A DNA stretch of 64,000 bases from Bacteroidales bacterium (GCA_049792755.1 JBARBF010000024.1:5675-69674); one strand, 5' to 3'; shown: positions 11,485 through 38,469, counted from the first letter of the stretch. The notes: a model not told the origin generated them from the letters alone. Numbers and translations: made by a program.

Positions 11485-13170
11485 TTAAAATGTAACACCC
11501 ATGTTCATTAAAAAATGTTCAACTATGGGACCAAGTGCAAGAGGAGGGAAAAATGTCAAACCTCCAACAATAAGGATTACACTTATCAACAACATGACAA
11601 ACAGCAAGTTGTCGGTTCTGAAAGTACCTGACGAAACCGGGGTGACCTTCTTCTTAGCCATGCTTCCTGCAATTGCCATTACCGGTACAATAATTCCAAA
11701 ACGGCCAATAAACATACCAAAGCCCATCATAAGGTTGTAAAAGACAGTGTTTGTGTTTAGCCCGCCAAAAGCGCTGCCATTATTTCCGGCGGCCGAACTG
11801 AATGCATATAAAATCTCAGAAAGTCCGTGAGGCCCTGCATTATTGAGACCCGATAATCCTGCAGGTATTGAACAGGCTAATGCAGAAAATAATTTAATTA
11901 CTATACTTGGAGCGAGAATCGCAAGAATTGCCATTTTCATTTCAAAAGCCTCCACTTTCTTACCAAGGTACTCAGGTGTCCGGCCAACCATGAGCCCTGC
12001 AATAAAAACAGTAAGTATTATAAATATTATTATCCCATATAAACCCGATCCTACTCCACCAAAAATAATTTCACCAAGCATCAGGTTGAACATTGCTACC
12101 AGACCTGAGAGAGGTGATAAGCTGTCATGCATGGCATTCACAGAACCGTTCGAGGTAACGGTTGTAGTAACTGACCAGAGGACACTGTTCATCACTCCAA
12201 AACGAGTTTCTTTACCCTCCATTGCACCTGACACATTCAACACATTATTATGACTGTATTCTGACCAGAGAGATATTGCAATGCCTACCGCAAAGAGGAT
12301 AAACATGGTAATAAAAATGGCACGGGCCTGTCGTTTGGATTTCATATAATAACCAAAAGTAAAAACCAGACCAGCTGAAATAAAGATGATTGAAAACATC
12401 TCAAGTAAGTTGGAAAATGGTGTCGGATTTTCAAAAGGATGTGCACTGTTTGCACCAAAGAAACCCCCGCCGTTTGTGCCAAGTTGCTTAATGGCAATTT
12501 GCGATGCTGCCGGACCTAATGGAATAACTTGCTCAGTTCCCTGCAAAGAGGTTGCTTTTACGTAATGTGAAAATGTTTGTACAGCGCCCTGTCCAACCAA
12601 AGCCATGGTGAGAATAATAGAGAGTGGCAATAACACATAAAGTACGCTTCGGGTCATATCTGCCCAAAAATTACCAAGGGCATCTGTTGTTTTTCTGGTC
12701 AGGCCCCTGATCAAAGCCAGTAATACTGAAATTCCTGTCGCTGCACTTACAAAATTCTGCACTGTCAATCCCAGCATCTGAACCAGATAGCTCAGAGTAT
12801 TTTCACCGCTATATGATTGCCAGTTAGTATTTGTTGTAAAACTCATAGCTGTATTAAATGCAAGATGCCATGAAACATTTGGTAATTTTTGGGTATTCAG
12901 AGGCAGATAAGCCTGTATCAGCTGCAAAATATATAGAAAAACAAATCCAAAAATATTGAAAAGGAGCATACCGTACATATAGGTCTTCCAGTTCATCTCC
13001 TCCTCGCTTTTGATTCCTGCTACCCTGTATACCCGTTTTTCAAGCCATCCAAAAACCGGCTTCATAATATGTTTTTCACCCATAAAGACTTTTGCCATGT
13101 ATTTACCCAACAATGGCGATAACACGACCAGTAATACCAGGAAAAGGATCAGTTGAATTGCCTCGTTCAT
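11485..13170 (-). CDS. kdpA: K+-transporting ATPase subunit A
   Basis: 561-aa polytopic protein with KdpA selectivity-filter-like repeats ([31 protein letters not shown]). Confidence 0.95.
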
Positions 13171-13225
13171 ATTTTTAAGCTTTAAGCATAATTTAAAATT
13201 TACTTATGATATTTGTATGAAGACC

Positions 13226-13288
13226 GAAGTCGGAAGTCGGAAGAAAGAATCATAATTCTTTTATGCCGGTCTTCGGACTTCCAACTTC
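13226..13288 (-). other. Long stem-loop in the kdpF-kdpA spacer built from inverted heptamer repeats
   Basis: gaagtcggaagtcggaag (13226-13243) pairs with cttcggacttccaacttc (13271-13288) at 16 of 18 positions. There is an inner hairpin aaagaat/attcttt. An alternative pairing is gaagaccg (13219-26) with cggtcttc (13267-74). No U-tract follows in the mRNA sense. Confidence 0.6.
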
Positions 13289-13453
13289 TTAAAATTTATC
13301 AGGCCTTAATAAAGTATAAATTAAATATCCAAGAATAATGAGTGCAATTATGCCTCCCAACAGGTAACTCAGAGCGCTGTTTGATCCGGCAGCCTCCTGA
13401 TTAGCCGGGGTAATAAGAAAGAGCATAAGCAATTTTGGAATTTTTGTCTTCAT
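13289..13453 (-). CDS. kdpF: KdpF-like small membrane peptide (below the ORF-track cutoff)
   Basis: My own translation gives MKTKIPKLLMLFLITPANQEAAGSNSALSYLLGGIIALIILGYLIYTLLRPDKF. The C-terminal TM ending LLRPDKF matches the KdpF signature (..ALLxPExF). It lies directly upstream of kdpA. The true start may be internal (Met10 or a TTG/CTG). Confidence 0.6.
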   Translation of the reverse strand: MKTKIPKLLMLFLITPANQEAAGSNSALSYLLGGIIALIILGYLIYTLLRPDKF

Positions 13454-13502
13454 AGTATAAATAATTTACTTCTATCAATATTCAATTTAATTGTTCAATT
13501 GG

Positions 13503-14855
13503 TTATAATCTGAATAGAACAGCAAATATTATCCTGCTTTCAGATTTTACAAGGTCCGGTCTCCAGTCAGCCGGTAAAGGTGTCCATTGGTAACCGGTTG
13601 GTGAAGTCACACCACCTTTCCCGGCAAAATACGGTACACTTGATTCGCGATGAACAATCTCTACGCGGAAAGTAATGCTTTGATTAGGCATCCAGTCTAA
13701 ATTTGAGGAACAGTCCCAGGCTTTAAATTTATCTCCCGGATTGGCACTGAACGGAAATGCTCCTTCTGTCTGAGTCGGGTTATTCGGATCAGGTAAAGGG
13801 CTCGCCTGACCGGTCGGATATAATACCAGATAACGACCCGGATTTGTCATTACACCTCCGCCAATTGTCCAGGCAATTTTATTTTTTGCAAACCAGATCC
13901 GGTTGTAAAACATAGCGCTAGCAAAATACTGGGCGGGTCCCTGGCTCGCATTACCATTCTTAAATCCGTTTACGCCTCCTCCTTTTTCATCACCAATATC
14001 ACAGGTTAATGAAAAAGCCATTCTAGAAATTCCATCTGACTGCGGATTATTGTAATATCGTACCAACATGCTGTTATCGGAATGGAAACGTTTTCTCTGT
14101 GGCAAACCTCCGGCATCTGTCCCATAATAATCGTTGGTAAGTATCTTAAAACTGCTGACCGGCATCCATGTAACATTGGTGCCTATGCCTGGCATGCTGT
14201 TAAACTTGCCATAACTCTGCCATCCATTTATAATCCATGGTTCGATCTTTAGATGCTGGGTAGGATAAATCTGAATGCGGACCCCGTTAAAAAACCAGGG
14301 AGTATCATCGGATGTATAAGATGCCTGGTACTCCCAGTTTTCGGGCTGATAGTAAGAGTTAAGTCCGATATATGACATGAACAGGCCCGCATCTACATTG
14401 ATTCCATACAAAACGTTAAAGTGATATCCTGCGTAAGCTTCACTCAGGTAACGGTATACATTCGCAAGGTTATATTGTCCCCTGTAAGGACTCAGATCAT
14501 TCCGGGGAACAACTTCAGACCGGGTGCCAAATTGTGTCATAAACCTGGCACGCGAATTCAGGTAATTGAAATCTCCCCCAATGTGCAGTGCGGAAAGCTG
14601 TACTTCATTGTCACGGGCCAGTGCAGTGGATCCAACAACAGTATTATCATTAGGATTATTAAATGAATGGGTATAGCTCAGATCCATTAAGATACCGGGA
14701 GTAAAGAATTTCATATTCTTAAACACCGATGAATCTCTTCGATCGCTTCCATTTTGCCAGGAAGCATCCAGATTTGTAAATGGTTCACCTTTTTGCTGGG
14801 CAATCAGACCGATACTACCTGCAACAATTAATATCAATGACAGAATCGTTTTCAT
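13503..14855 (-). CDS. Outer-membrane porin-like beta-barrel protein, first gene of the kdp operon
   Basis: Signal peptide MKTILSLILIVAGSIGLIAQQ. The sequence is aromatic/Gly-rich with an alternating pattern and ends in FAVLFRL (a C-terminal aromatic/hydrophobic beta-signal-like end). The gene stops 49 nt upstream of kdpF. Confidence 0.6.
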   Translation of the reverse strand: MKTILSLILIVAGSIGLIAQQKGEPFTNLDASWQNGSDRRDSSVFKNMKFFTPGILMDLSYTHSFNNPNDNTVVGSTALARDNEVQLSALHIGGDFNYLNSRARFMTQFGTRSEVVPRNDLSPYRGQYNLANVYRYLSEAYAGYHFNVLYGINVDAGLFMSYIGLNSYYQPENWEYQASYTSDDTPWFFNGVRIQIYPTQHLKIEPWIINGWQSYGKFNSMPGIGTNVTWMPVSSFKILTNDYYGTDAGGLPQRKRFHSDNSMLVRYYNNPQSDGISRMAFSLTCDIGDEKGGGVNGFKNGNASQGPAQYFASAMFYNRIWFAKNKIAWTIGGGVMTNPGRYLVLYPTGQASPLPDPNNPTQTEGAFPFSANPGDKFKAWDCSSNLDWMPNQSITFRVEIVHRESSVPYFAGKGGVTSPTGYQWTPLPADWRPDLVKSESRIIFAVLFRL

Positions 14856-25119: not shown

Positions 25120-26640
25120 TTATAAATCATGCCCGCAATAGCTCAGGTTAAAACTTTTGTTGCAGATCGGGAAGTCTGATATTTCCTGATTACGTACTGC
25201 GAGAGCAAGCGCCATCCAATTGTGGATTGAAGGATCTTTCACTTTGTAATGGTTTATATATCCATTTTTATCAGTTGCAGCCAGGTGGCAAATTTCACCC
25301 CTCCATCCTTCTACCATTGAAATCGCAAAACGATCGGGTCTTAATATATAATTATAAACCGGCATCCTGATGTCACCGGTTTTTTCACGCCAGATTTTGA
25401 TAAGTTCCTGAATGATTTTCACCGATTCACCGGCTTCCAGAACTCGCAAAAGGCCACGGGCAAGTACATCACCAGTTTCAAGTATTATAGGTTTTGATGA
25501 ATATTTTTTATAGTATTGAAACGGATGGGTATGACGTACATCGCGCTGAATACCGCTGGATCGGGCAGCCTGACCTACTATTCCAATTGCCAGACCCTGT
25601 TGTTTTGTCAGTATTCCGATATCATCAAACCGAGATAGAACACTTGGCAGTGAATAGATACGATCGGCAATCTTACTAAACCGTTTGCCTGAATTACCGA
25701 GAATTTTTAATATCTCATCAGCAATATCATTATCAAGGGGGCAATTGGTGCCACCTGGTCGGATAAGGCCCTTGCCGAAGCGATTGCCACACCAAAGCTG
25801 AGTGGTATTGATTATTGTGGTTCTGAGCGCTTCGCAGGCTACTTGCCCCAGCTGATAAGCAACATCACCACATAAAGCGGCAGTATCGCCGATATTAACT
25901 GCCAGCTTTTCCAATTCCAGAGCAATACATCGCTCTACCTGTAATTTTTCATCTGCTTCCATTCCACTTAACGACTCAATAAGCTGTGAATGAGCCAATG
26001 CGTGTCCAACTGATGAATCACCTGCTATGCTCTCCGAAAGTACACATCTTTGTAACGGAGTATTTTTTGTAATAAACAACTCTTCAATCCCACGATGCTG
26101 GTACCCTAGTTGAATTTCAAGATGCAGAACCTTTTCACCGTTACAGATAAACCTGAAATGACCCGGCTCAATTACACCGGCATGAACAGGCCCCACGCCC
26201 ACCTCATGCAATTCTTCACTCTCAATATTGTAGAAAGGATAATTATCCATAATCTTTGATTTATCTGTCCGGTAATGTGGATATCTCACGGGCTTCAGCC
26301 ATGGATGACCCTCGAAATCTACTTCTGAATTTTCATGAATCTCACGTTCAAAAATATGCATCTGAGGACATATCGGAGTAATAGATTTTATTCTTCGCTG
26401 ATCATTTTTTAGTTCATGTGCAAATATTGCAATACTACTATTATTATCATCTGCTATGCAACAATAAAATTTCAGTTTATCAGATGACACTAAAGCGTAG
26501 TAAGCAATACAATGTTTTGCTTCATCTTTTAAAAAACCGACAACCTGATCATAAAATTTATCATATTTTAAAACAGGTATTTCATCAATTTCTATTGATA
26601 ATGAATTGTTTTTTATTTCAACATATGGTTTTTGATCCAT
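25120..26640 (-). CDS. NuoC-NuoD / HycE-like large-subunit homolog lacking NiFe-binding cysteines
   Basis: GPVHAGVIEPGHFRF and LGYQHRG are large-subunit/NuoD signatures, with an N-terminal domain of about 120 aa that is NuoC-like. The L1 position reads ESIAGDSSVGH. The C-terminus reads ...NLSYCGHDL-stop. Confidence 0.85.
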   Translation of the reverse strand: MDQKPYVEIKNNSLSIEIDEIPVLKYDKFYDQVVGFLKDEAKHCIAYYALVSSDKLKFYCCIADDNNSSIAIFAHELKNDQRRIKSITPICPQMHIFEREIHENSEVDFEGHPWLKPVRYPHYRTDKSKIMDNYPFYNIESEELHEVGVGPVHAGVIEPGHFRFICNGEKVLHLEIQLGYQHRGIEELFITKNTPLQRCVLSESIAGDSSVGHALAHSQLIESLSGMEADEKLQVERCIALELEKLAVNIGDTAALCGDVAYQLGQVACEALRTTIINTTQLWCGNRFGKGLIRPGGTNCPLDNDIADEILKILGNSGKRFSKIADRIYSLPSVLSRFDDIGILTKQQGLAIGIVGQAARSSGIQRDVRHTHPFQYYKKYSSKPIILETGDVLARGLLRVLEAGESVKIIQELIKIWREKTGDIRMPVYNYILRPDRFAISMVEGWRGEICHLAATDKNGYINHYKVKDPSIHNWMALALAVRNQEISDFPICNKSFNLSYCGHDL

Positions 26641-26642
26641 GA

Positions 26643-28073
26643 TTATGGCTGTTTAATAAAAATAGAAATACTCTGGTTAATTAGATCTACCAGGAAGGGA
26701 GGCTGATAAAAACACATAATGATCACAACAACAAGCAATAAAAATTGACTGACTGTCTCAACCGGTTTGATTTTTTCCGGGGACTTCTGATTGTTTACGC
26801 TCCGGGGATTTGAAAATACAATATGCATAATTCTTGTACTCATGGCATAAATTACAAAGCACAGCAGCAATATAACAACACAAAGTACAAACCAGTGGTT
26901 TTTGAAAACCATTGCCTTAAATATCATAAACTTACTAATAAACAACCCTGAAGGCGGGATGGCAAGAATACAGAACATTCCTGCAATAAGTACTAACGCA
27001 CCCGCTGGATAAAGTTCCATATATCTGCCGGTTTCATCTAATTTGAACGTATGCAGTACTCTTGAAAGTTGTCCCATTTGATAAAAAAGACTTGATTTGG
27101 ATAACGAATGAAGTACAAGTAAAAGAAATGCCGCGAAATACCCGGCGCCACCTACTCCTATCGCAATGGCTACCAGTCCCATATTTTCCAGACTTGAATA
27201 AGCAAGCATTCTCTTAAGATGTTTTGCTTTAAGCATATAACCGGCAGCTATCAATAAAGACATTAATCCAGAAAGGATCAGCACATTATTCATAAAACCT
27301 AATATTGAGGAGGAAGAAAACATGGAATAAACTCTGAAAATAGCCAGAAAACCGACGTTCATTAAAGCGGTTGAAATCAAAGCACTGATTGGAGGTGGAG
27401 CGACTGAGTGAGCATCAATTGTTACTGTATGCATCGGGAACAGCCCCATCTTTGTGCTAAATCCAACTAAAACAAATAAAAATGCAATTTTCAGATACAT
27501 CGGGTTAGCTTCATTAATAATATTGGCGATTGATGTAAATGACAGATTAGCAGCATCTCCGCGGCCATAAATAAATCCTAAAAATAATATGCCTAAATAA
27601 GCCAGGGCAATACCGGTAGAACAGATAAACACATACTTCCATGTTGCTTCCAATGCTATTTCTGTGCGATCATGATATATCAGGGCCGCAACGGCCAGGG
27701 TTGTCGCTTCTACAAAAATCCACAGGACAGTCATTCCATTTGCCATATATGCACCTGACATAAAAGTTATTAAACCAATCAATGCTGCGTGATAAATATT
27801 ATATTTCTTCACTTCATCTGTGGCCGCGTATATAAATCCATGATAAATAGTCGGCAAGGTCAAAATTGACAAAACTGACATAAGCAACACACCAGCGCTG
27901 TTAAAAGTGAAATAACTTAATTCGGTTTTGTTTAAATTGTTCCAGCAATATATTGTAAAACAAATATGTACCAACGCATAGCTGATTGTTATAATCTTAG
28001 TTATAGTCTTATTTTTTAGTAAGATTATTGAGATAACTGAAAAAACTGAAATAATAAAAAATAATAAAAGCAT
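26643..28073 (-). CDS. HyfF/NuoN-like Mrp-antiporter-type membrane subunit
   Basis: 476-aa polytopic protein. Motifs typical of proton-conducting antiporter-like subunits: FLFVLVGFSTKMGLFPMHTV, MLAYSSLENMG, HSLSKSSLF. Confidence 0.8.
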   Translation of the reverse strand: MLLLFFIISVFSVISIILLKNKTITKIITISYALVHICFTIYCWNNLNKTELSYFTFNSAGVLLMSVLSILTLPTIYHGFIYAATDEVKKYNIYHAALIGLITFMSGAYMANGMTVLWIFVEATTLAVAALIYHDRTEIALEATWKYVFICSTGIALAYLGILFLGFIYGRGDAANLSFTSIANIINEANPMYLKIAFLFVLVGFSTKMGLFPMHTVTIDAHSVAPPPISALISTALMNVGFLAIFRVYSMFSSSSILGFMNNVLILSGLMSLLIAAGYMLKAKHLKRMLAYSSLENMGLVAIAIGVGGAGYFAAFLLLVLHSLSKSSLFYQMGQLSRVLHTFKLDETGRYMELYPAGALVLIAGMFCILAIPPSGLFISKFMIFKAMVFKNHWFVLCVVILLLCFVIYAMSTRIMHIVFSNPRSVNNQKSPEKIKPVETVSQFLLLVVVIIMCFYQPPFLVDLINQSISIFIKQP

Positions 28074-28079
28074 ATTCTA

Positions 28080-28694
28080 TTAATCTTTTAGCATGGTTAA
28101 TTCGTTAGTGTGCGGTCTTAGTCGTAATCCAAAAAAACCAAGTATTAACACTCCTACAAATATGTCAAGCAATATTCCAATGTTGATCAGCATAGGCATT
28201 TTATTGCCGACAGCAAGAGAAAACATAAAAACTGAATTTTCAATTATTAAAAACCCTATCAGATGTGAGATTATCAGTTTGTGAGTAACAATAAGCAATA
28301 GTCCTGTGAAAAGAGTAAAAAGAGCAATAGCCATATAAATGGTATTTACATAATTATTTATCAGGGAGTTTGCCAGAAGAACACTTATCAATAATGCGAA
28401 AATTGATAAAATAATTAAATAAAATCCGGGCATAGCCTGCCTGTGAATTTTTGATACACCTGACCGGTTAATTATCCTAAAAAGCAGGTATGGAATTAAA
28501 ATTGTTTTAAAAATCAAGGTCTCGGAAGCTATAAACAGAAGATTTGCAGTATTAATTTCTTTAAGCTCAAATAATGCAATTCCACATAGTAATAATCCCT
28601 GGACCCCAATAAGATTTATATATAGAACCAGTCTTTCCGCTGAGCAAAAATAAATAAGGGTAATTGCAAATAATACTATCAGGTAATTTACCAT
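28080..28694 (-). CDS. HyfE-like small membrane subunit
   Basis: 204-aa protein with about 6 TM helices, between the NuoH-like and HyfF-like genes as in hyf-type operons. The assignment is mostly positional. Confidence 0.6.
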   Translation of the reverse strand: MVNYLIVLFAITLIYFCSAERLVLYINLIGVQGLLLCGIALFELKEINTANLLFIASETLIFKTILIPYLLFRIINRSGVSKIHRQAMPGFYLIILSIFALLISVLLANSLINNYVNTIYMAIALFTLFTGLLLIVTHKLIISHLIGFLIIENSVFMFSLAVGNKMPMLINIGILLDIFVGVLILGFFGLRLRPHTNELTMLKD

Positions 28695-28701
28695 ATTGTA
28701 T

Positions 28702-29613
28702 TTAAATAAATTTGTCAGTCAAAATTAAAATTATCACAAAAGCGATCCAGGCAATTGCAGAGATTGAAAGTATAAATTTTGGATTTTTATTCATTTTGTT
28801 TCTGGCCCTGAATGATTCAATCAGTCCGATGATCATGGCAAACACCACCTGAACTAACAGGAATAAAACAATCTGCAGAAATATGTTCCAGCTGGCCGGC
28901 ACAATAACATTATACATCAATGATCCATAAATTGCAAATTTCAGGTACGAACAAATATGAATTAATGCTTTATCAAAACCACTGTTATCCAGGATCATCA
29001 CTTCATGTATCATCGTGAGTTCGAGATGTGTTTTCGGGTCATCAACGGGTAATCTGCTGTTCTCGATCATGGCGATCTGAATAAACACATAAAATCCTAA
29101 TATACTGTATATCAATACATAATTATTTCCAGTAAGAAAGAAATGATTAAAGATATCTGAAAAGGAAGTAAACCCTGTAAGCATTGCAAAAGTAGCCAGC
29201 AGAATAAAAAAAGCCGGTTCAGCCAACATTGAGAAAAACGCTTCACGATTGGCTCCCATTCCCTCGAAACTGCTACCGGTATCAAGAGCAGCAAGAATAG
29301 TAATAAATTTCCCGAATGCGAGCAGATAAGAGAAGAAAACAAAATCTCCTTCAAATGAAATAATTGCATTTCGTTCTGCGAATGGGATTACCAGTAAAGC
29401 ACATAAAATAGCTGACAATGCAACAACTGGTGCTATCTGAAATATGATTCCTGTTGTTTTACTGAAAACACTTCCTTTTCTCATTAATACTCTTAAATCT
29501 TTGACAGGTTGAAGTATGCCAGGACCCTTACGACCTGAAAAAATGCTCTTTGTTCGTAATATAACACCTGGAAAAAAGAAAGCTGCAATTAAAATCAGAA
29601 CAAATCCCAGCAT
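28702..29613 (-). CDS. HycD/HyfC/NuoH-like membrane subunit
   Basis: 303 aa. N-terminus R(K)..GR.GPG.LQP..D (SGRKGPGILQPVKDL) and ENSRLPVDDPKTHLELTMIHE (the conserved NuoH/HycD loop). Confidence 0.8.
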   Translation of the reverse strand: MLGFVLILIAAFFFPGVILRTKSIFSGRKGPGILQPVKDLRVLMRKGSVFSKTTGIIFQIAPVVALSAILCALLVIPFAERNAIISFEGDFVFFSYLLAFGKFITILAALDTGSSFEGMGANREAFFSMLAEPAFFILLATFAMLTGFTSFSDIFNHFFLTGNNYVLIYSILGFYVFIQIAMIENSRLPVDDPKTHLELTMIHEVMILDNSGFDKALIHICSYLKFAIYGSLMYNVIVPASWNIFLQIVLFLLVQVVFAMIIGLIESFRARNKMNKNPKFILSISAIAWIAFVIILILTDKFI

Positions 29614-29615
29614 AA

Positions 29616-31610
29616 TCAGATAAGATTAAAATAGGTTAATATGAAAACAAGAAGCATAAAGACAAATGCATATAAAATGTAATGTTGTATCTGTCCGGTC
29701 TGCATTACTGCAATCCTTTTTAGAATAGTCGAGGACCAATCTATAGGTTTGTCTATCAGAAGCTTTTTGAATATATCGTCACTGTGCGACTCGAAGGACC
29801 TTTTCCCTGGAAATATTTCATCATCACGGATTTCTTCCATTATTTTTTTTGTCTGGAGCACTGGCTTCGCAAGATGGTTATAATTATAAGCATATGATGT
29901 TGCAGTATATTGTTGTCTGCTGCTTCCTGCAGTATAACCACAACCCCATGTGGGCTCAATGTCAATTTGCTTATTTTTAAGATGGAAATGCCTGTAAACG
30001 AGAAAAACAATAATTGTACAGACAAAAATGCCGCTTAGAATACTTATTTGTGTAAGGTTTTTTATGGAGGAATTTGCTACCAGATTTAAATCACTGATTC
30101 TGAATGACTGCGATACTATGTTAAACACAGGTTTCACAAATAATACTGACATTAGTCCTATCAGCATAATAAAAGCAATAGTGATAAATTGCGGAAAAAT
30201 CATCAATTTGCTTACTTCTTCAGCCCTTGATGCTTTTTCTGAACGCGGCTCGCCAAGAAATACTATTCCAAATGCTTTTGTAAAACAAAAAATTGCCAGT
30301 CCTCCTATCAGAGAGAGTCCGACAATGCTTGAAAGAAGAACTATGGATTGATATAAATTAGCCGACGACAGGCTTTTAAACATTCCAATATAGATGAGAT
30401 ATTCCGAGATAAATCCATTAAATGGAGGCAGACCACATATAGCCAATGAACCTATAAGAAAGAGAACTGAAGTATAAGGCATTTTTTTCATCAGTCCACC
30501 AAGTTGTTCTATGTTTCGCGTATGTGTGGCCTGATATACTGAGCCAGCATTGAAGAAAAGAAGTGATTTGAAAAGTGAATGGTTCATCACATGAAGTAAA
30601 CCTCCAACAAAGCCAAGCAGACTTAATGCGGTGTTATTTGTTGAAATACCAATCGTACCCACACCAATTCCGATACCTATGATTCCAATATTCTCAATGC
30701 TATGGTATGCCAGTAAACGTTTTAAATCGTGCTGAACGATGGCCATCATAACCCCAAGTACACCGGATATCAGCGAAACCGATAATATTATCATACCAAT
30801 TAAAAGTAGTTCGCTTTGTACCGACATAAGTACCCTTAAAATACCATATATGCCCATTTTTATCATGACACCTGACATAACTCCGGATACATGCGAAGGA
30901 GCTGCAGGGTGAGCCTCAGGGAGCCATGTGTGCATGGGAATAAACCCGGCTTTTATGCCAAATCCGATAAAGAAAAGAATAAAAAGCAATATATTAGAGT
31001 GATTCACAAAATATGATCCAAGGGCATCAAAACTCATTTTCCCGGTAGCTTTTCCGACAATCAAAAAGCTTATCAGGAGAAAAAACATGCCTACGTGCAT
31101 CTGGATAAAGTAACTGATACCCGTTTTCATAATAGTTCGGTCTTCAGCATCAAAAATTACCAGAAGGAATGATGAAAGGGCCATTAATTCCCAGACAATT
31201 AAAAAAGCCAGGCCGTCGCGGATAATAACTACCATCATCATGGAGAAATAAAGCCAGATGTATGAGAAGTAATGTATCGAAAAACTCAATGCATTTTTAC
31301 TCCGATAATATGGTTTCAGATATCCCCGGGCATAAAGAAACCCGGTAAATACAGTTATATTAATTAATACAATGAAGAATGCAGAAAGCTTATCGATTAT
31401 AAACATAAAGCTGTTTTGCAGGAAAGGCAATCCTGACTGTAGTTCAAGTATTTGTCTATCAGATGAAACCAGATCAATACACCATATTGAGGTCAACACA
31501 ATGCCACATACAAGCAAAAAAAGGCTATAGAAATACTTTAGAGACCTGGGGATAAAGAAAACAGGGAAGGTCAGAAGTAATAAAAGAAGAAAGTATAATG
31601 CGTTATTCAT
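29616..31610 (-). CDS. HyfB/NuoL-like antiporter-type membrane subunit
   Basis: 664-aa polytopic protein. GFGIKAGFIPMHTWLPEAHPAAPSHVSGVMSGVMIKMG, LLAYHSIENIG and HSLFKSLLF are characteristic of the NuoL/HyfB family. Confidence 0.85.
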   Translation of the reverse strand: MNNALYFLLLLLLTFPVFFIPRSLKYFYSLFLLVCGIVLTSIWCIDLVSSDRQILELQSGLPFLQNSFMFIIDKLSAFFIVLINITVFTGFLYARGYLKPYYRSKNALSFSIHYFSYIWLYFSMMMVVIIRDGLAFLIVWELMALSSFLLVIFDAEDRTIMKTGISYFIQMHVGMFFLLISFLIVGKATGKMSFDALGSYFVNHSNILLFILFFIGFGIKAGFIPMHTWLPEAHPAAPSHVSGVMSGVMIKMGIYGILRVLMSVQSELLLIGMIILSVSLISGVLGVMMAIVQHDLKRLLAYHSIENIGIIGIGIGVGTIGISTNNTALSLLGFVGGLLHVMNHSLFKSLLFFNAGSVYQATHTRNIEQLGGLMKKMPYTSVLFLIGSLAICGLPPFNGFISEYLIYIGMFKSLSSANLYQSIVLLSSIVGLSLIGGLAIFCFTKAFGIVFLGEPRSEKASRAEEVSKLMIFPQFITIAFIMLIGLMSVLFVKPVFNIVSQSFRISDLNLVANSSIKNLTQISILSGIFVCTIIVFLVYRHFHLKNKQIDIEPTWGCGYTAGSSRQQYTATSYAYNYNHLAKPVLQTKKIMEEIRDDEIFPGKRSFESHSDDIFKKLLIDKPIDWSSTILKRIAVMQTGQIQHYILYAFVFMLLVFILTYFNLI

Positions 31611-31859: not shown

Positions 31860-32594
31860 CTATTCGTTAACCGGTAAAGAGCCGGAAAAAATAATAGGTT
31901 CCGATGATTTCTTATTTTTTAATCGGAAAATAAAATGTTTGTCCTGATAGACCGATTCTAATAATCCGAAATATATTAAATCGGCGATAATATTCTCAGC
32001 TGCACTCCTTGGCAGGTATACCATTCTGCAGAACCTTAAGATAGAGATTGACGGATTTAATTCAAGATAATCCAGGAGCTTCTTCACCTTTTCACTATAT
32101 TCCATCAGTATACCACTATGATAAATTTTCTTTTTCCAAACCTTCAGATGAACAGTAGTAGCGAGAATATTTTCATCTTTTACCCGGATATAAGCCGACC
32201 AGTTATTCTGCTCTGTCTTAGCAAAATAAGGAATATGTGAGCCTTTGGGGATTATAACTTCAAGTACCGTTTTGCCATCGACTATCCATCTTTTTGATTC
32301 AAACACAATTTCGGGTTTACAATACATCCCGGCAGCTGCCTGAACCATATAAAATTCTTCATCAGAGTGCACCCCGGCTATGTTACCGTTATCTTTGACT
32401 CCGATAAGCAGTTTTCCGCCATCGGTATTAGAAAAAGCAACAAGAGTTTTAGCAATTTTCCTGGAGTCGGAGATTTCGAATTTAAAGTCCAGCTGCTGAT
32501 GTTCGCCTTCCTTTATTAATCTTTTTATATAAGAGTTCGGTCTCTTTTGAAGCACTTTTATTGTTCCTGAATGATACTTTGCCATCAATATCAA
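31860..32594 (-). CDS. AlbA_2 (Schlafen-like) domain protein with C-terminal winged-helix
   Basis: EGEHQQLDFKFEISDSRKIAKTLVAFSNTDGGKLLIGVKDNGNIAGV is the AlbA_2 / 'divergent AAA' core. The C-terminus LLDYLELNPSISILRFCRMVYLPRSAAENIIADLIYFGLLE looks like wHTH. Confidence 0.7.
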   Translation of the reverse strand: MILMAKYHSGTIKVLQKRPNSYIKRLIKEGEHQQLDFKFEISDSRKIAKTLVAFSNTDGGKLLIGVKDNGNIAGVHSDEEFYMVQAAAGMYCKPEIVFESKRWIVDGKTVLEVIIPKGSHIPYFAKTEQNNWSAYIRVKDENILATTVHLKVWKKKIYHSGILMEYSEKVKKLLDYLELNPSISILRFCRMVYLPRSAAENIIADLIYFGLLESVYQDKHFIFRLKNKKSSEPIIFSGSLPVNE

Positions 32595-32795
32595 AATTAA
32601 TTAATCTGTTTGCAGGTGCTCCATCAAAATAATAACAGGACAATATTACGAATTCCTCAAATACAAAATTCCCGGAATGCCCGATAAACTGTTCTATTTA
32701 TTAACATACCAATAATAGTCTTATCATTGTATTTCTGTCTAATTTTCAGTAATTATGCTCTGCCATTTTTAATTCCTCTTCATATATTATTACTC

Positions 32796-35700
32796 ATGAA
32801 ATCACCATTCAAATTCCTCGATTCGTATACAAAAGAAGATCGTGAAATATTTTTCGGACGTGAAAAGGAAATAGAAGAATTGTATCGTCGTCTTTTTGAA
32901 AGCAATGTACTGCTGGTCTACGGAGAATCCGGAACCGGAAAGTCGTCAATTATCAATTGCGGTTTAGTTAATAAGATTAATGACACTGAACATCTCACTA
33001 TCTATATTCGTCGATCAGATAACGTACTTGAAAGTCTTTCTGAAGCGATACATGTTCTCCTCAGGGAATCTTCTCCCCGACAACTGCTTACGGCTCTTTT
33101 GTTTAAAAAAGCTCTGAGGGAGATATCTGAAGATATTCATAAACAGCTAATCTTTATCTTCGATCAATTTGAAGAGTTATTTATTTTCGGAACAAAAGAA
33201 GAAAAGCAGAGCCTTATTCAGGTTCTGAAAATCCTGACAGAATCCGATCTGAATTGCAAATTTATATTTATTATCCGCGAGGAGTTTTTTTCTAATGTGG
33301 CTGAGTTTGAGAAACATATACCCGACTTCCTGTCCAACAGGATGCGTATTGAAAGAATGGACAGAACCAATGCCATAGGAGCAATAAAAGGATCATGCAG
33401 TGTTAATGACATTCAGGTTGAGGATGGATTTGCCGAAAATCTTCTGAAGAAACTCAATCCCGAAAGCCCCGGAATTGAGCTGACCTGGCTTCAGATTTTC
33501 CTTGACAAGATCTTCAATTTGGCGGTTTATGATATTAAACCTGATAATGACACAACTAAGCCTATTGTCTTTACAACAGGTTTAGTTGAAAAAACCGGAG
33601 ATGTCTCTGATTTACTCGGTAGTTTTCTTGATGACCAGATCTCATTATCGCCAAAACCCGACACAACTCTGGCAATATTGAAATCGTTTGTCTCATACAA
33701 AGGTACGAAACGGAAGCTTAATCTGGCTGATGTTAAAGATTATGCAACTACTCTGGGGGAATATGTCAAAGAGAAAGATGTTCTCGAAATAATAAGGTCC
33801 CTGGTTAATTTAAGAATTTTGCGGGATAAGGATGAGAACGGATTCTATGAGCTCCGGCATGACTCACTTGCTGCTAAGATCTTTGAAAAAATATCTGCAG
33901 CTGAAATTGAAATTCTTGAGGTCAGACAGTTTATTGAAAGTGCCAATTATTTCTGGAAAAAGCACGGTGTGCTGCTCTCTGAAGAAGATCTTAAATACAT
34001 CAGTCCATTCGAGAAAAGATTATCACTTTCTGATGACCTCACAAGTCTTATTGAATTAAGCAGAGAAAAATTCAGTACGTCAAGGAACAGAAGAAGAAAT
34101 ATATTAGTTTCAGGAGGTACAGTAATTATTCTATTGCTCTCAGCTTTTTCTGTCTGGGCTTTAAAGGAGCGTAACAGGGCTGAGAATCTTAGTATCAAGG
34201 TACTGGCTGAAAAGAATAATTTACTGGCTTCAAATGTAGCAATACACGATCCGACGAAAGGATTAAGACTGGCGGAATATGCTAATTCTCTTGATTCAAC
34301 CAATCATAGTATTATAAATAACATAAAACAGATTTATTCAGATAATATATTTTATACCTTGATTGCCAGACAGAGTGATGCATTTGCAAAACAGGAAGAT
34401 GCAATAAGTACTGTTGCATTTTCCCCTGACAGCAAATTTATTCTTACCGGTTCAGGAGATGCAACTGCAAGACTATGGGACCTGAATGGAAACTGTATTA
34501 AGATTTTTATTGGCCATTCAGGATATGTGAATTCTGTTGCTTTTTCCCCCGATGGCCAGTCAATTCTGACCGGTTCCTCTGATCGTTCCGCCCGTCTCTG
34601 GAATATAAACGGGAAGGTAATCGCGGATTTTAAAGGACACGGTATGGCAGTTAATTCTGTCGCCTTTTCTCCTGATGGCAAGGAAATAATTACCGGTTCA
34701 AATGATAAAACTGCCCGTCTGTGGGATCTGAACGGGAATGTAATCATGGAATTTAAGGGTCATACAGCGTCAGTAAATTCAGTTGCCTTTTCGCCCGACG
34801 GTCAGCATATTCTTACCGGATCATCAGATTCAACTGCCAGACTCTGGAACAAAGAAGGAAAACAACTGAAAGTTTTAGAAAAACACCTGAATATTATAAC
34901 TACTGTTACTTTTTCCCCGGATGGGAAAGAGATGCTTACCGGATCGAACGATAAAACAGTAAAGCTATGGGGCTTTGACGGAACATTAGTAAGGGTTTTT
35001 ACAGGGTTCCCGGGAGAAGTTAATGATGCGGTCTTTTCACCCGACGGGAAAAAGATACTTATCGGTGCAAGTGCCGGCTATGCTGTTCTCCTTGATCTGA
35101 ACGGCAATGAAATTAAAGAATTCAAAGGGCATACGATAAAAGTGAGAGCAGTTGCCTTTTCGCCGGATGGCTCCAAAATAGTGACAGGATCAGCAGATTG
35201 CACTGCAAAACTCTGGTACCTGAATCAAAATCTTAATCAGGTTTATAATGGACATACCGGGAAAATTACCTCTGTTAAATTCTCAAAAGACGGAAAAGAA
35301 TTTCTAACAGCTTCATCAGATAAAACAGTACGACTCTGGGATATCGACGGAAATACTATTAAAATATTCAAGGGACATAAATATGGAGTTAATGATGTTG
35401 CATTTTCCCCTGATGGCCAAAAGGTACTTACCGCATCAGACGACTGTACCGCTATGTTATGGGATCTTCAGGGAAATCTGATAAAGATTTTTTCAGGACA
35501 CAAGATGGGGGTAACCAGCGTCGCTTTTTCACCTGACGGCCAGAAAATACTTACAGGATCACAGGATGCAACTGCCCGGCTCTGGGATCTCAGCGGTACT
35601 ATGCTTATGATTTTCAGGGGGCATAATTCAAAGGTGAATTCCGTTGCATTTTCGCCAGATGGTAAAACAATTCTGACCGGATCGAACGACTACTCAGCCA

Positions 35701-36923
35701 GGTTATGGGATCTCAACGGAAATATTCTTACAGAATTGAGGGGACAGTTGAGTGCAATAAATTCCGTGGCATTCTCGCCTGACGGGCTAAGCTTTTTAAC
35801 CGGATCATTTGGTTCTGATCCATCTGCCAGATTATGGGATATTAAAGGAAACTTAATCAGAGTTTTTAAAGGACATACAACTTCAATTTTCTCAGTGGTT
35901 TTTTCACCTGATGGTAAAAAAATCCTTGCCGGCTCAGCTGACCAGACAGCAATCCTATGGGATATGAACGGAAATATTGACCAGGTTTTTTCAGGATATA
36001 AATCATATGTGAATTCCGTCGGATTTTCACCTGACGGACAAAGAATTCTGTTAGGGCTTGATAATGGAAGTGCACGGTTATATCCTGTTAAAATGCCTTA
36101 CCGTAATTTTAATAAAATAAATAAATATGAAAAACTGACTTCATTTGATAAACTTCTTTATAATATAACCGATATCAACACTATAAGAGCATCTGAAGAT
36201 GAGAACTCACTTCTGCAAGCTTCTGACTATTATATAAATGAAGCTTTACAGAGTGGGCTAAGTGAAAAAAACAAGTACATTAGTACTTCAATAGATCTGT
36301 ATAACAAGTTGTTATTGAAAAATCCCGGGAAAAAGGAATACCTTTTCAGGCTGCTGATGGCAAGTGTATATAGTTATGCAACAATTCCGGCTGATAAGAC
36401 TAAAAAAGAAATAGAAAAAATAAATGAAGAAATTATGGGACTCACTTCAATAGATGACCTTACCCTGGCCGGTTATGCTTACTGCTTAATCTGTACGAAA
36501 AATGATTTGAAGAATGACCCTCTGGGAATCCCCGACTGCTTCCTGGCTATCTGCCAAAAATTATTAAATGACCCTGACCTTCAGCAAGCCGAGAGGAAAG
36601 ACATCAGCAGGTGGTGTACTCTTTTGTCTCTGGATTTTATCTTGAAGAAGGAATTCTCTCAGGCTCTTCAGTTTATTAAGACTGCAGAACTTTCAGACAC
36701 TTCCAATACTGAGATGCGCATTCTACTTCCAATAATATATATATTTAACGATCAGTATGATAGAGCAGAAACAATAATTAATGAATTTAAAAATAAAGCA
36801 TTGACAGGTATAGATAACTTTAAAACATATAAAGAGGCTTATAAAAATGCAATTGAATTATGTGAAGAAAGTTCAAAAACAAATCCAGACTTAGCAAAAG
36901 CAAAAGGCCTCTTAACAGATTGA
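32796..36923 (+). CDS. STAND-type P-loop NTPase - TM helix - 14x WD40 - alpha-helical (TPR-like) tail
   Basis: Start chosen at MKSPFKF; the track ORF begins at 32727 with an implausible hydrophobic leader. SPFKFLDSYTKEDREIFFGRE lead-in, Walker A GESGTGKSS, Walker B LIFIFDQFEELF, hydrophobic helix ILVSGGTVIILLLSAFSVWAL (about nt 34098-34164), 14 repeats of a 41-aa unit V.SVAFSPDG..ILTGS.D.TARLWDL.G, then about 310 aa of helical sequence. Confidence 0.85.
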   Translation: MKSPFKFLDSYTKEDREIFFGREKEIEELYRRLFESNVLLVYGESGTGKSSIINCGLVNKINDTEHLTIYIRRSDNVLESLSEAIHVLLRESSPRQLLTALLFKKALREISEDIHKQLIFIFDQFEELFIFGTKEEKQSLIQVLKILTESDLNCKFIFIIREEFFSNVAEFEKHIPDFLSNRMRIERMDRTNAIGAIKGSCSVNDIQVEDGFAENLLKKLNPESPGIELTWLQIFLDKIFNLAVYDIKPDNDTTKPIVFTTGLVEKTGDVSDLLGSFLDDQISLSPKPDTTLAILKSFVSYKGTKRKLNLADVKDYATTLGEYVKEKDVLEIIRSLVNLRILRDKDENGFYELRHDSLAAKIFEKISAAEIEILEVRQFIESANYFWKKHGVLLSEEDLKYISPFEKRLSLSDDLTSLIELSREKFSTSRNRRRNILVSGGTVIILLLSAFSVWALKERNRAENLSIKVLAEKNNLLASNVAIHDPTKGLRLAEYANSLDSTNHSIINNIKQIYSDNIFYTLIARQSDAFAKQEDAISTVAFSPDSKFILTGSGDATARLWDLNGNCIKIFIGHSGYVNSVAFSPDGQSILTGSSDRSARLWNINGKVIADFKGHGMAVNSVAFSPDGKEIITGSNDKTARLWDLNGNVIMEFKGHTASVNSVAFSPDGQHILTGSSDSTARLWNKEGKQLKVLEKHLNIITTVTFSPDGKEMLTGSNDKTVKLWGFDGTLVRVFTGFPGEVNDAVFSPDGKKILIGASAGYAVLLDLNGNEIKEFKGHTIKVRAVAFSPDGSKIVTGSADCTAKLWYLNQNLNQVYNGHTGKITSVKFSKDGKEFLTASSDKTVRLWDIDGNTIKIFKGHKYGVNDVAFSPDGQKVLTASDDCTAMLWDLQGNLIKIFSGHKMGVTSVAFSPDGQKILTGSQDATARLWDLSGTMLMIFRGHNSKVNSVAFSPDGKTILTGSNDYSARLWDLNGNILTELRGQLSAINSVAFSPDGLSFLTGSFGSDPSARLWDIKGNLIRVFKGHTTSIFSVVFSPDGKKILAGSADQTAILWDMNGNIDQVFSGYKSYVNSVGFSPDGQRILLGLDNGSARLYPVKMPYRNFNKINKYEKLTSFDKLLYNITDINTIRASEDENSLLQASDYYINEALQSGLSEKNKYISTSIDLYNKLLLKNPGKKEYLFRLLMASVYSYATIPADKTKKEIEKINEEIMGLTSIDDLTLAGYAYCLICTKNDLKNDPLGIPDCFLAICQKLLNDPDLQQAERKDISRWCTLLSLDFILKKEFSQALQFIKTAELSDTSNTEMRILLPIIYIFNDQYDRAETIINEFKNKALTGIDNFKTYKEAYKNAIELCEESSKTNPDLAKAKGLLTD
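34390..36090 (+). repeat. Coding tandem repeat: 14 WD40 units of about 123 nt
   Basis: The (A/V)FSPDG core recurs 14 times at intervals of 41-43 codons. Adjacent units share most positions. This also explains the antisense ORF 34352-34747. Confidence 0.9.
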
Positions 36924-36999: not shown

Positions 37000-38469
37000 C
37001 TACTTTTTTGGTTCCGGTAAGTCCAGTACTTTTGTTGTTCCTCCCGTTTCGAGGTTAATTCCGTGAGGCTTATTTGTCTTCCACGAACCACCTGTAAAAT
37101 CAGGAACATCGATTGATTGTGACCTGTTGGCTACTGACCATTCACTTAATGGTGCGATGGAACTCCAGAGAGAACCGTCATATACATTCTGATCCAGAGG
37201 AAGTCCGTTTCTTAAGCAATCCATTAGACGCCAGTCCATTATAAAGTCCATTCCTCCATGACCGCCAACCTTTTTAGCCATTTCACCTAGTTTTTTAACA
37301 ATTCCAGGGGAGTATTTGTCGTATAATTCTTTCATTTTAGTTTCATCTGCCCACTCTTCACCGAGAGCAATTAATTCTTTGGGATATTTGACTACTTTTC
37401 CGTCGGTCCCCTGGAGAAGATGTATTCTTGAATAAGGATGCATAGAAGACACATCGTGCTGTATCATAATTGTCTTTCCCAATGTAGTCTTTACTATCGT
37501 TGTATTCATATTACCCCTGAATTTTGCGTCCTTCCACGGAGCATAGAAAACATCCTGAGAGGCAAGTTCCTTCTCTTTAGGTCCCATTGTATAATCGAGG
37601 GTTGACATAGATGACAGAAACTCCATTTTATCTCCACGGTTGATATTCATTGCCTGACATACAGGTCCCAATCCGTGAGTGGGATAAAGGTTACCATTTC
37701 TGCTTGCATTTTCTTTCAGTCGCCACATATCTGTATAGGCTCCGTCAACCTGTTTATCATCCTGAGGCTTCTTGAAATTATATCCCATAAGATTATGAAT
37801 ATAGGCGCCTTCTCCGTGAATGATCTCTCCAAACATTCCCTGCCTGGCCATATTAAGGGTAAGTAATTCAAAGAAATCATAGCAGCAGTTTTCGAGCATC
37901 ATGCAATGCTTTCTGGTTTTTTCAGAAGTTTCGACAAGTTGCCAGGCTTCATCTATTGTACGTGCAATCGGAACTTCACATGCAACATGTTTTCCATGCT
38001 CCATTGAATATACCGAAATTGGCGTATGAAGAATCCATGGTGTGCAAGTGTAAATAAGATCCAGATCGGGCAGTTCAACAAGTTTTTTCCAGATATTTTC
38101 ATCCCCAAAAAACTCCATAGCCGCAGGTCGTCCTATACCGGCAAGATATTTCTGCGATTCTTTTACACAAACTTCTCTCTTGTCCCCCAACGCTTTGATC
38201 TCAACTCCTTCAATATACGATAATCGTTCAACTGCATCGCTCCCTCTGTCACCTAATCCGATAATTCCTATCCGAACTACCGGAATTGCAGGAGCAGCAT
38301 AGCCCGACATATTAAACTTTTGCGTATGAGATTTCTTAACAGTTTCAAGAATCCCGGAGAGGTTTGATCCGGCTTGTTTCCTGGTGCAGGAAGATAAAAA
38401 ACTGCCAGCCACTGCACCCGCGCCGGCAAAGGTTGCAGTCTTTAAGAAATTGCGACGATTGGTTGCCAT
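37000..38469 (-). CDS. Tat-exported Gfo/Idh/MocA-family NAD-dependent enzyme, GH109-like
   Basis: Twin-arginine signal MATNRRNFLKTATFAGAGAVAG..SC. Rossmann IGIIGLGDRGS. The size (489 aa) and layout resemble GH109 alpha-N-acetylgalactosaminidase-type glycosidases. Confidence 0.7.
   Translation of the reverse strand: MATNRRNFLKTATFAGAGAVAGSFLSSCTRKQAGSNLSGILETVKKSHTQKFNMSGYAAPAIPVVRIGIIGLGDRGSDAVERLSYIEGVEIKALGDKREVCVKESQKYLAGIGRPAAMEFFGDENIWKKLVELPDLDLIYTCTPWILHTPISVYSMEHGKHVACEVPIARTIDEAWQLVETSEKTRKHCMMLENCCYDFFELLTLNMARQGMFGEIIHGEGAYIHNLMGYNFKKPQDDKQVDGAYTDMWRLKENASRNGNLYPTHGLGPVCQAMNINRGDKMEFLSSMSTLDYTMGPKEKELASQDVFYAPWKDAKFRGNMNTTIVKTTLGKTIMIQHDVSSMHPYSRIHLLQGTDGKVVKYPKELIALGEEWADETKMKELYDKYSPGIVKKLGEMAKKVGGHGGMDFIMDWRLMDCLRNGLPLDQNVYDGSLWSSIAPLSEWSVANRSQSIDVPDFTGGSWKTNKPHGINLETGGTTKVLDLPEPKK

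Follow-up and report, generated by a model that had tools for sequence, protein, structure and literature searches.

We analysed a 64-kb window of DNA from Bacteroidales bacterium GCA_049792755.1 (the window being the whole stretch examined), in which one large plus-strand gene encodes a 1375-residue protein with a STAND-type NTPase at its N terminus, a predicted transmembrane (TM) helix and a long repeat-bearing C-terminal region; residue numbers below are those of this protein. An earlier reading of the same DNA, made from the bare sequence (hereafter the sequence-only reading), had described a protein of this length with a particular lead-in, Walker A motif, Walker B motif and hydrophobic helix, and we found all of these in the protein. 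The open reading frame (ORF) was intact, with an ATG start codon and the N terminus MKSPFKFLD, shared by nearly all homologs and by the ortholog in locus L001 (loci from our surveys carry L numbers, followed where needed by coordinates within the locus). An alternative TTG start at 32727, 23 codons upstream, was not supported, since the extension was not kept in the L001 ortholog and almost all homologs share the downstream start. A scan for sigma-70 promoters and terminators, a method ill-suited to Bacteroidota, gave counts not above those in shuffled sequence. The gene and its parts are as follows.

32796–36923, plus strand: complete STAND gene, 1375 codons and a stop, encoding an nSTAND1 NTPase, TM helix, 14 WD40 repeats and a tetratricopeptide repeat (TPR)-like tail (ORF, Pfam, orthologs)
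32805–33965, plus strand: nSTAND1 STAND NTPase module, residues 4–390, with P-loop domain, helical domain and winged helix (Pfam PF20703, AlphaFold2, Foldseek)
32922–32948, plus strand: Walker A motif GESGTGKSS, residues 43–51 (G43 and S45–S51 invariant in alignment A1)
33153–33182, plus strand: Walker B motif FIFDQFEELF, residues 120–129 (F122–E127 invariant in alignment A1)
34098–34163, plus strand: single predicted TM helix, residues 435–456, between RNRRR and KERNR (Kyte-Doolittle hydropathy, homolog conservation, flank charge, AlphaFold2)
34164–34394, plus strand: juxtamembrane linker, residues 457–533, predicted periplasmic (dN/dS, the ratio of nonsynonymous to synonymous substitution rates, ~0.1)
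34395–36122, plus strand: 14 WD40 repeats, residues 534–1109, two seven-bladed propellers' worth (Pfam WD40 and propeller families, repeat table)
36081–36920, plus strand: TPR-like alpha-solenoid tail, residues 1096–1375 (AlphaFold2, Foldseek, weak Pfam TPR_19)

The NTPase occupied the very start of the protein. Residues 4–390 matched positions 1–374 of the 379-position Pfam profile nSTAND1 (PF20703; E 1.6e-35; 123.9 bits against a cutoff of 27.1), with the lead-in SPFKFLDSYTKEDREIFFGRE at residues 3–23. The N terminus bore no effector or adaptor domain, the P-loop being reached already at residue 43, which bears out the suggestion that there is no room for an N-terminal effector; of 120 homologs, 117 likewise began directly with the NTPase lead-in. 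Searches of Pfam, NCBIfam and PADLOC returned nothing specific for the protein beyond nSTAND1 and WD40, and neither NB-ARC nor CARD was among the Pfam matches listed (25 of 62 families), the NTPase region being assigned to nSTAND1. Both Walker motifs and every family-invariant residue of alignment A1 were retained, and judged by its sequence the window protein is catalytically competent.

An AlphaFold2 (AF2) model of residues 1–470, built from a 7-sequence alignment (predicted local distance difference test score, pLDDT, 73), contained a winged-helix region in addition to a helical domain and an alpha/beta P-loop domain, and it fits a STAND-type ATPase. Comparison of this model with the PDB by Foldseek returned archaeal Walker-type ATPases, Cdc6/Orc1, Apaf-1, CED-4, a wheat resistosome and Avs4 at E 6e-10 to 1e-5 (2qen, 2qby, 3sfz, 4m9s, 9h2l, 8dgf), with template-modelling scores of ~0.3, so that the match is one at the level of domains. 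The model ended in one unbroken helix (residues 413–469), which spanned the hydrophobic segment and projected from the globular part without packing against it.

The hydrophobic helix NILVSGGTVIILLLSAFSVWAL (residues 435–456) had a mean Kyte-Doolittle value of 2.16 over 19 residues, compared to 1.07 for the runner-up segment of the protein, and an equivalent segment was present in the same place in 120 of the 120 best homologs (Kyte-Doolittle 1.7–2.85). Among these homologs the residues of the helix varied, with hydrophobicity and the frame RRRN...WAL-KER kept. Lysine and arginine in the 15 flanking residues averaged 7.4 on the N-terminal side against 4.4 on the C-terminal side, with the N-terminal side the richer in 117 of 117 sequences. 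The layout in which the NTPase begins at residue 1, the P-loop lies at ~43–50 and a single span lies at ~425–510 held down to ~29% identity in 80 loci of species-representative genomes, and among 1673 representative clusters (E ≤ 1e-30) the 150 best shared this layout too. These observations support residues 435–456 as a segment that behaves as a true membrane-spanning helix.

Further evidence on topology came from relatives in which the STAND protein ends in a stub of only 80–230 residues after the helix; in these, the next gene encoded a separate WD40 protein of 500–1100 residues. Approximately 17 of the 28 downstream WD40 proteins of this neighbour cluster opened with a typical signal peptide (N termini read by eye), for example MIRISILFFVLLYIPAMGQ and MQISITILFAFVCLNLQAQ (loci L037, L039, L050, L053, L056, L058, L063, L069 and L073), and ~10 of the same 28 were split STAND genes whose second ORF encoded a winged helix, the TM helix and WD40 repeats. 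FGE-sulfatase ectodomains occurred in 6 of 43 other family members. Because the flank charge follows the positive-inside pattern and an ATPase needs cytoplasmic ATP, we infer an N-in/C-out orientation, with the NTPase in the cytoplasm and the ~920-residue WD40 and TPR region in the periplasm. This receptor topology is well supported, although not proven, by the conservation of the helix, its flank charge and the signal peptides of sibling WD40 proteins; the proposal of the sequence-only reading that the helix crosses the membrane with the ATPase inside and the WD40 region outside thus gained comparative backing.

We weighed two other accounts of this helix. A wholly cytoplasmic, soluble protein resembling Apaf-1, with the hydrophobic segment as a buried or peripheral helix, would agree with the fact that canonical WD40 repeats are known mainly from cytoplasmic proteins. 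We give this account very little credence, however, as it is at odds with a hydropathy of 2.16 between charged flanks, with hydrophobicity that is kept while residues change, with the positive-inside pattern in every sequence compared, with a modelled helix that does not pack against the domain, and with sibling systems that export their WD40 component by signal peptide. Alternatively, the helix could itself be the output, an ATP-driven oligomer bundling 7–8 helices into a pore or lesion in the manner of a resistosome. The conservation of the helix beyond mere hydrophobicity (small residues SGG/SGF and the WAL-K/E-R end), the lack of an effector domain on the polypeptide and the long helix projecting from the modelled NTPase all point in this direction, but the helix also occurs in members that have CHAT or TIR partners, and a folded ectodomain of 920 residues on each helix would crowd a tight bundle; we regard a pore as quite improbable.

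Between the NTPase domain and the propellers, a Pfam search of residues 391–535 gave zero matches. The WD40 region matched Pfam at E 5e-147 and comprised 14 units of 41 residues, except for one of 43, in agreement with the two propellers' worth counted previously. The units shared on average 49% amino acid and 56% nucleotide identity, and Tandem Repeats Finder (TRF) detected only 2.4 copies; the repeats are old. On these values, together with the fixed length of the orthologs, we rejected recent repeat amplification and hypervariable WD40 repeats of the type found in fungal NLRs. The C-terminal tail had been described as ~310 helical residues that could not be assigned: its helical nature was upheld, its length was nearer 275–280 residues (the modelled segment overlapping the last WD40 unit by 14 residues), and it can now be assigned as a predicted TPR-like solenoid. 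The AF2 model of the tail (25-sequence alignment; pLDDT 91; predicted template-modelling score 0.84) contained 15 helices, and its nearest structures by Foldseek were a consensus TPR, MamA, KLC1-TPR and LapB at E ~1e-3. The tail was 21–35% identical in paralogs, and within the family it was confined to Bacteroidales-type members. A hidden Markov model (HMM) of the tail found no match in the secreted WD40 proteins, and the tail therefore adds no evidence on topology.

The family to which the gene belongs is large: species-representative genomes contained at least 509 loci, and clustering at 50% identity gave 1673 clusters (E ≤ 1e-30). The genes around 87 family loci were clustered. The sequence-only reading had called the system effector-less, which is correct for the polypeptide but misleading for the family, since in 71 of the 87 loci a co-directional partner gene upstream encodes the effector, and the window clade has lost this partner. 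This partner cluster had 84 members, of which 67 were at position −1 on the same strand, and the partner gene, often coupled to the STAND gene in translation, frequently overlapped the NTPase start by 4 nt. Long partners (~570–650 residues) carried an N-terminal CHAT or TIR-like domain followed by a conserved module of ~345 residues, and the short form, found in Bacteroidales, was the module alone. The CHAT domain matched Pfam (E 1e-8 to 1e-11) and PDB 8tl0 (1e-17), with its H...C dyad conserved; the TIR-like N terminus occurred in a few members (L039, L055 and L065), that of L055 matching TIR_2 at E 1e-3 and the N terminus of PADLOC PDC-S60 at 2e-12. The motif R-N-x3-H was invariant in the short partners and degenerate in the long forms that bear CHAT or TIR, and because of this pattern the module may be a HEPN-like RNase whose activity is confined to proteins lacking another fused effector, with the module serving elsewhere as an inactive adaptor.

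Overall, the family module comprised two or three genes: the upstream partner, the nSTAND1-TM protein and an optional third gene. The ectodomains of the nSTAND1-TM proteins were variable (two propellers and a tail, one propeller, an FGE-sulfatase domain or a short stub), and where the ectodomain was a stub the third gene encoded a signal-peptide-bearing TPR/coiled-coil/WD40 protein. Genes of this third type, with WD40 repeats, a signal peptide and a TPR-like or coiled-coil N terminus, were present in many operons of Saprospiraceae/Chitinophagales type, directly downstream of the short-ectodomain STANDs. Several other genes accompanied family members. In four Bacteroidales loci the STAND gene or genes were followed, in the same orientation, by a gene for a TPR protein with a SpoIIE (PP2C phosphatase) domain, directly so in L003 and L004, and a Peptidase_C14 caspase gene was near the STAND gene in L004; both may be further components. 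A small convergent gene (208–308 residues) lay just downstream of mainly single-propeller STAND variants in eight loci, with one weak match to GldL_N (E 1e-5). The recurrent genes are located as follows.

L003:6775-7881, L004:6909-7946, L005:6903-7940, L006:6880-7917 and 67 other loci: upstream partner module of ~345 residues
L037:11821-14829, L039:11773-14616, L050:3653-6469, L056:11746-14118, L058:5477-7813, L073:103-3180 and others: third-gene WD40 proteins
L003:12087-13934, L004:12124-13968, L010:14045-15895, L014:15518-17392: TPR-SpoIIE genes, same strand as the STAND gene
L004:14073-15704: Peptidase_C14 caspase gene
L009:3927-4694, L010:9079-9804 and 12792-13718, L014:14591-15460, L015:7978-8667, L018:12839-13753, L021:8421-9206: small gene, convergent with the STAND gene
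L007:4468-5637, L009:36-1184, L022:13544-14770, L081:8826-9998: AAA_14 and DUF4143 ATPase genes adjoining several family members

Tandem STAND paralogs were frequent in the family. Paired nSTAND1-TM genes, often in the order partner, first STAND, second STAND and with unlike ectodomains, were observed in L008, L010, L014, L015, L017, L020, L023, L034, L041, L058, L066 and L071, and a single chromosome from a metagenome-assembled genome (OY970346.1) carried at least three separate systems (L005, L011 and L016).

The ~345-residue partner was absent from the 64-kb window when sought by tblastn and HMM, and none was found adjoining the orthologs in L001, L002, L099 and L117. In a neighbour-joining tree of NTPase domains, the partner-less window clade was nested inside Bacteroidales clades that all carry the partner, so that its loss is derived. 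Orthologs 69–84% identical to the window protein had 1370–1378 residues, and more than 20 ortholog clusters (~70–84% identity) were nearly all 1368–1378 residues long. The ratio dN/dS, estimated by the Nei-Gojobori method against four orthologs with dS ~1 or higher, so that the values are approximate, was 0.07–0.12 for the NTPase, TM, linker and WD40 regions and 0.19–0.26 for the tail. The window gene is thus under purifying selection (dN/dS ~0.1) and is a real and intact orphan member of the family whose partner was secondarily lost.

The neighbouring genes of the window were as follows.

31860–32594, minus strand: Schlafen AlbA_2 gene with a weak C-terminal winged helix-turn-helix (wHTH), divergent from the STAND gene (AlbA_2 E 5e-22)
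25120–31610, minus strand: complex-I/Mrp-like membrane operon (two Proton_antipo_M, NADHdh, Complex1_49kDa and Oxidored_q6 in orthologous loci)
37000–38469, minus strand: GH109/GFO_IDH_MocA enzyme with a weak match to a twin-arginine translocation signal

The pair formed by the Schlafen and STAND genes was thus preceded by the complex-I/Mrp-like operon and followed by the GH109 gene and a glycosyltransferase gene, as expected from the description of its flanks as respiratory-type and glycan genes, and the operon and the GH109 gene were syntenic in relatives with or without the STAND gene. We surveyed this interval by a metagenome scan anchored on the flanking antiporter gene, followed by neighbour mapping, and found at least five states among relatives. 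The interval was empty in some (for example L100, L148, L120 and L160); held the Schlafen gene only in the closest relatives, whose antiporter was 80–85% identical (L087–L092 and L094); held the Schlafen and STAND genes as in the window in L099, L101 and L117; held a decayed STAND remnant in L096; or held the ~345-residue partner with a different STAND paralog (42–54% identical) abutting the antiporter operon (L113, L115, L116 and L105). In the L096 remnant (L096:7567-7829; metagenome contig Ga0209539_1000843), 86 nt from the start of the gene, 42 nt of its interior and 127 nt from its end survive. The remnant is flanked by the antiporter operon and the Schlafen gene, so that the STAND sequence and the Schlafen gene are in the reverse order compared to the window; this implies both deletion and rearrangement at the hotspot. 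The STAND gene is thus accessory and lies in a hotspot of gene flux that is not a recognised defence island. Presence/absence polymorphism, for which the sequence-only reading had proposed a test, was thereby observed; the gene is not a universally conserved core gene, and the refuting condition set by that reading came out in its favour.

Some eukaryotic Schlafens are RNases, and a two-gene system in which the Schlafen AlbA_2-wHTH neighbour acts as effector or regulator of the STAND protein would agree with the adjacent and divergent arrangement seen in all six window-clade loci examined (the window, L001, L002, L099, L101 and L117). However, the Schlafen gene was present without any STAND gene in nine loci of the closest relatives (L087–L095), was reversed in its position relative to the STAND remnant in L096, never adjoined the other 80 family members, had zero matches in PADLOC and carries a wHTH, which is typical of regulators. 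Because the Schlafen gene varies independently of the STAND gene, it is unlikely to be a dedicated partner, and we consider such a two-gene system very improbable. The window had been described as holding a two-gene insertion next to a Schlafen-like gene; the Schlafen neighbour was indeed present, but in place of a joint insertion we found two independently variable genes in a hotspot.

Taken together, we consider it probable, if only just, that the window gene encodes a bitopic inner-membrane STAND ATPase that senses in the periplasm, switches in the cytoplasm and acts through an unlinked partner or by another route. The domain order, the conserved span, the ATPase motifs and, in relatives, the linked CHAT, TIR or short partner and the exported WD40 protein were observed; the remaining steps are drawn by analogy with Apaf-1 and Avs-type STANDs (PMC7159879). 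A periplasmic ligand would bind the WD40 propellers or the TPR tail, and this would relieve autoinhibition across the membrane, upon which the cytoplasmic NTPase would exchange nucleotide and oligomerise in an ATP-dependent manner. The oligomer would then activate a cytoplasmic partner (a protease, an NADase or a putative RNase), leading to arrest or death of the cell. In the window copy, sensing of a conserved periplasmic ligand has most likely persisted, with signalling either to a partner encoded elsewhere or by some other output; candidate outputs are such a distant partner, non-lethal signalling or clustered TM helices that act on the membrane.

Several observations weigh against this reading. 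The NTPase model was only of moderate confidence, given its pLDDT and small alignment, and the ~345-residue module had zero matches to Pfam, NCBIfam, PADLOC and PDB sequence profiles apart from the CHAT part of the long forms. A match to a defence-system protein model was not obtained: in PADLOC-DB 2.0 the window STAND had only a WD40-driven match to HEAT-ARM_XIII, and family members and their partners matched only at the level of domains. The neighbourhood consisted of housekeeping genes with no known defence genes, the window copy has no linked effector, and a dS of ~1 or higher leaves the estimates of selection approximate. In addition, the WD40 region was as conserved as the NTPase, with neither variation in repeat number nor a sign of diversification, a pattern not typical of immune sensors that face fast-evolving invaders; such a conserved sensor argues for a conserved ligand over a fast-evolving invader protein.

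The protein might instead be a domesticated envelope-signalling or scaffold protein that, for example, monitors a conserved periplasmic or cell-wall component and has no death effector. The missing effector gene, the strong constraint on the sensor, the fixed length of the orthologs and the housekeeping neighbours (the complex-I-like operon, GH109, MurB and YceG) would all suit such a role. Nevertheless, we consider domestication unlikely, as the STAND gene was absent from the closest relatives and decayed in L096, is nested within systems partnered by CHAT or TIR proteins and has no evident regulated target.

Returning to the bitopic receptor, we advance a broader proposal for the family, tentatively and as a serious possibility rather than a probability: that it represents a prokaryotic 'outside-in' NLR, in which a periplasmic WD40, FGE-sulfatase or TPR sensor, at times with a secreted WD40 co-receptor, would signal through one helix to a STAND oligomer that fires a caspase-like, TIR-like or RNxxxH (possibly HEPN-like) effector. 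Such a system would provide envelope surveillance with Toll-like topology and an NLR mechanism, and in it the window gene would be an orphan receptor of long standing whose signalling needs no linked effector. To our knowledge, the ligands of all characterised bacterial STAND immune sensors (Avs, bNACHT) and of all eukaryotic NLRs are read in the cytoplasm. If the proposal is true, a STAND protein whose repeat sensor lies outside the membrane would bring this type of switch to surveillance of the envelope, for example of phage adsorption or injection machinery, predators, contact-dependent toxins or wall damage, and would raise the question of how one helix conveys ligand binding to an ATPase that oligomerises. 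The family is large, modular (its partners bear CHAT or TIR or are short, its sensors are of WD40 or FGE type, and a secreted WD40 protein is optional) and absent from PADLOC, and therefore offers tractable natural variants for experiments; the window copy raises the question of what role a conserved receptor plays after loss of its effector.

We compared these features with those of known systems. nSTAND1 was defined in conflict systems in which effectors or adaptor domains are fused to the NTPase and WD40 or FGS domains act as sensors (PMC8195603, PMC7159879). These systems resemble the present family in their NTPase, their C-terminal WD40 or FGE-sulfatase sensors, their effectors of CHAT, TIR or trypsin type and the occurrence of several paralogs per genome; they differ in that the effector or adaptor is fused N-terminal to the NTPase and the proteins are treated as cytoplasmic, whereas in the present family the protein begins directly with the NTPase at residue 1, a TM helix separates NTPase and sensor, and the effector is carried by a separate upstream protein with the conserved ~345-residue module, a protein that the window lacks. 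EACC1 systems at times include nSTAND1 (PMC8195603), and the two-gene EACC1 system (System 4, PMC7159879) is likewise a membrane-proximal two-gene module with a caspase-fold protease; it was rejected because its genes differ in order and components, the 5' gene encoding a TM protein with EACC1 alone and the 3' gene a caspase whose C terminus varies, and no EACC1-like Pfam match was present in residues 391–535. Diversity-generating retroelement-diversified nSTAND1/NACHT-CLec proteins include one predicted periplasmic case (PMC10907252). A literature search, of incomplete coverage and with supplementary tables outside it, did not find nSTAND1-TM-WD40 proteins accompanied by a CHAT/TIR module on a gene of its own upstream or by a secreted WD40 protein as third component, and we regard the family as widespread, essentially undescribed transmembrane STAND sensors of Bacteroidota.

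The sequence-only reading had thought a transmembrane STAND receptor unusual, which stands, but such proteins are not unheard of: 'transmembrane STAND ATPases' are named among the sensors fused to Pepco-associated proteases in a 2025 preprint (bioRxiv 10.1101/2025.11.14.688446). As described in the figure description in which they are named, these are likewise STAND ATPases with membrane segments in a protease-effector defence module, of Actinobacteria and cyanobacteria and fused to the protease (bioRxiv 10.1101/2025.11.14.688446). The Avs and bNACHT proteins share the logic of effector, STAND switch and repeat sensor, with Avs4 (8dgf) among the Foldseek matches; they sense phage proteins in the cytoplasm, carry fused effectors and lie in defence islands, whereas the present protein is not recognised by PADLOC, has its sensor predicted outside the cytoplasm and is conserved rather than diversifying. 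In topology alone, there is an analogy to bitopic receptor Ser/Thr kinases with an extracellular beta-propeller, such as PknD of M. tuberculosis: in both, one TM helix joins a nucleotide-dependent signalling domain in the cytoplasm to a propeller sensor outside it, a kinase with NHL blades in the one case and a STAND switch with WD40 repeats in the other. The Apaf-1/CED-4 apoptosome (Foldseek matches 3sfz, 3shf, 5juy and 4m9s) likewise places two WD40 propellers that sense a protein ligand after a STAND ATPase, and its oligomer activates a caspase-fold protease; Apaf-1, however, is a soluble protein of the NB-ARC clade with a CARD adaptor and without a TM helix or TPR tail, whereas the window protein belongs to nSTAND1 and is predicted to carry both.

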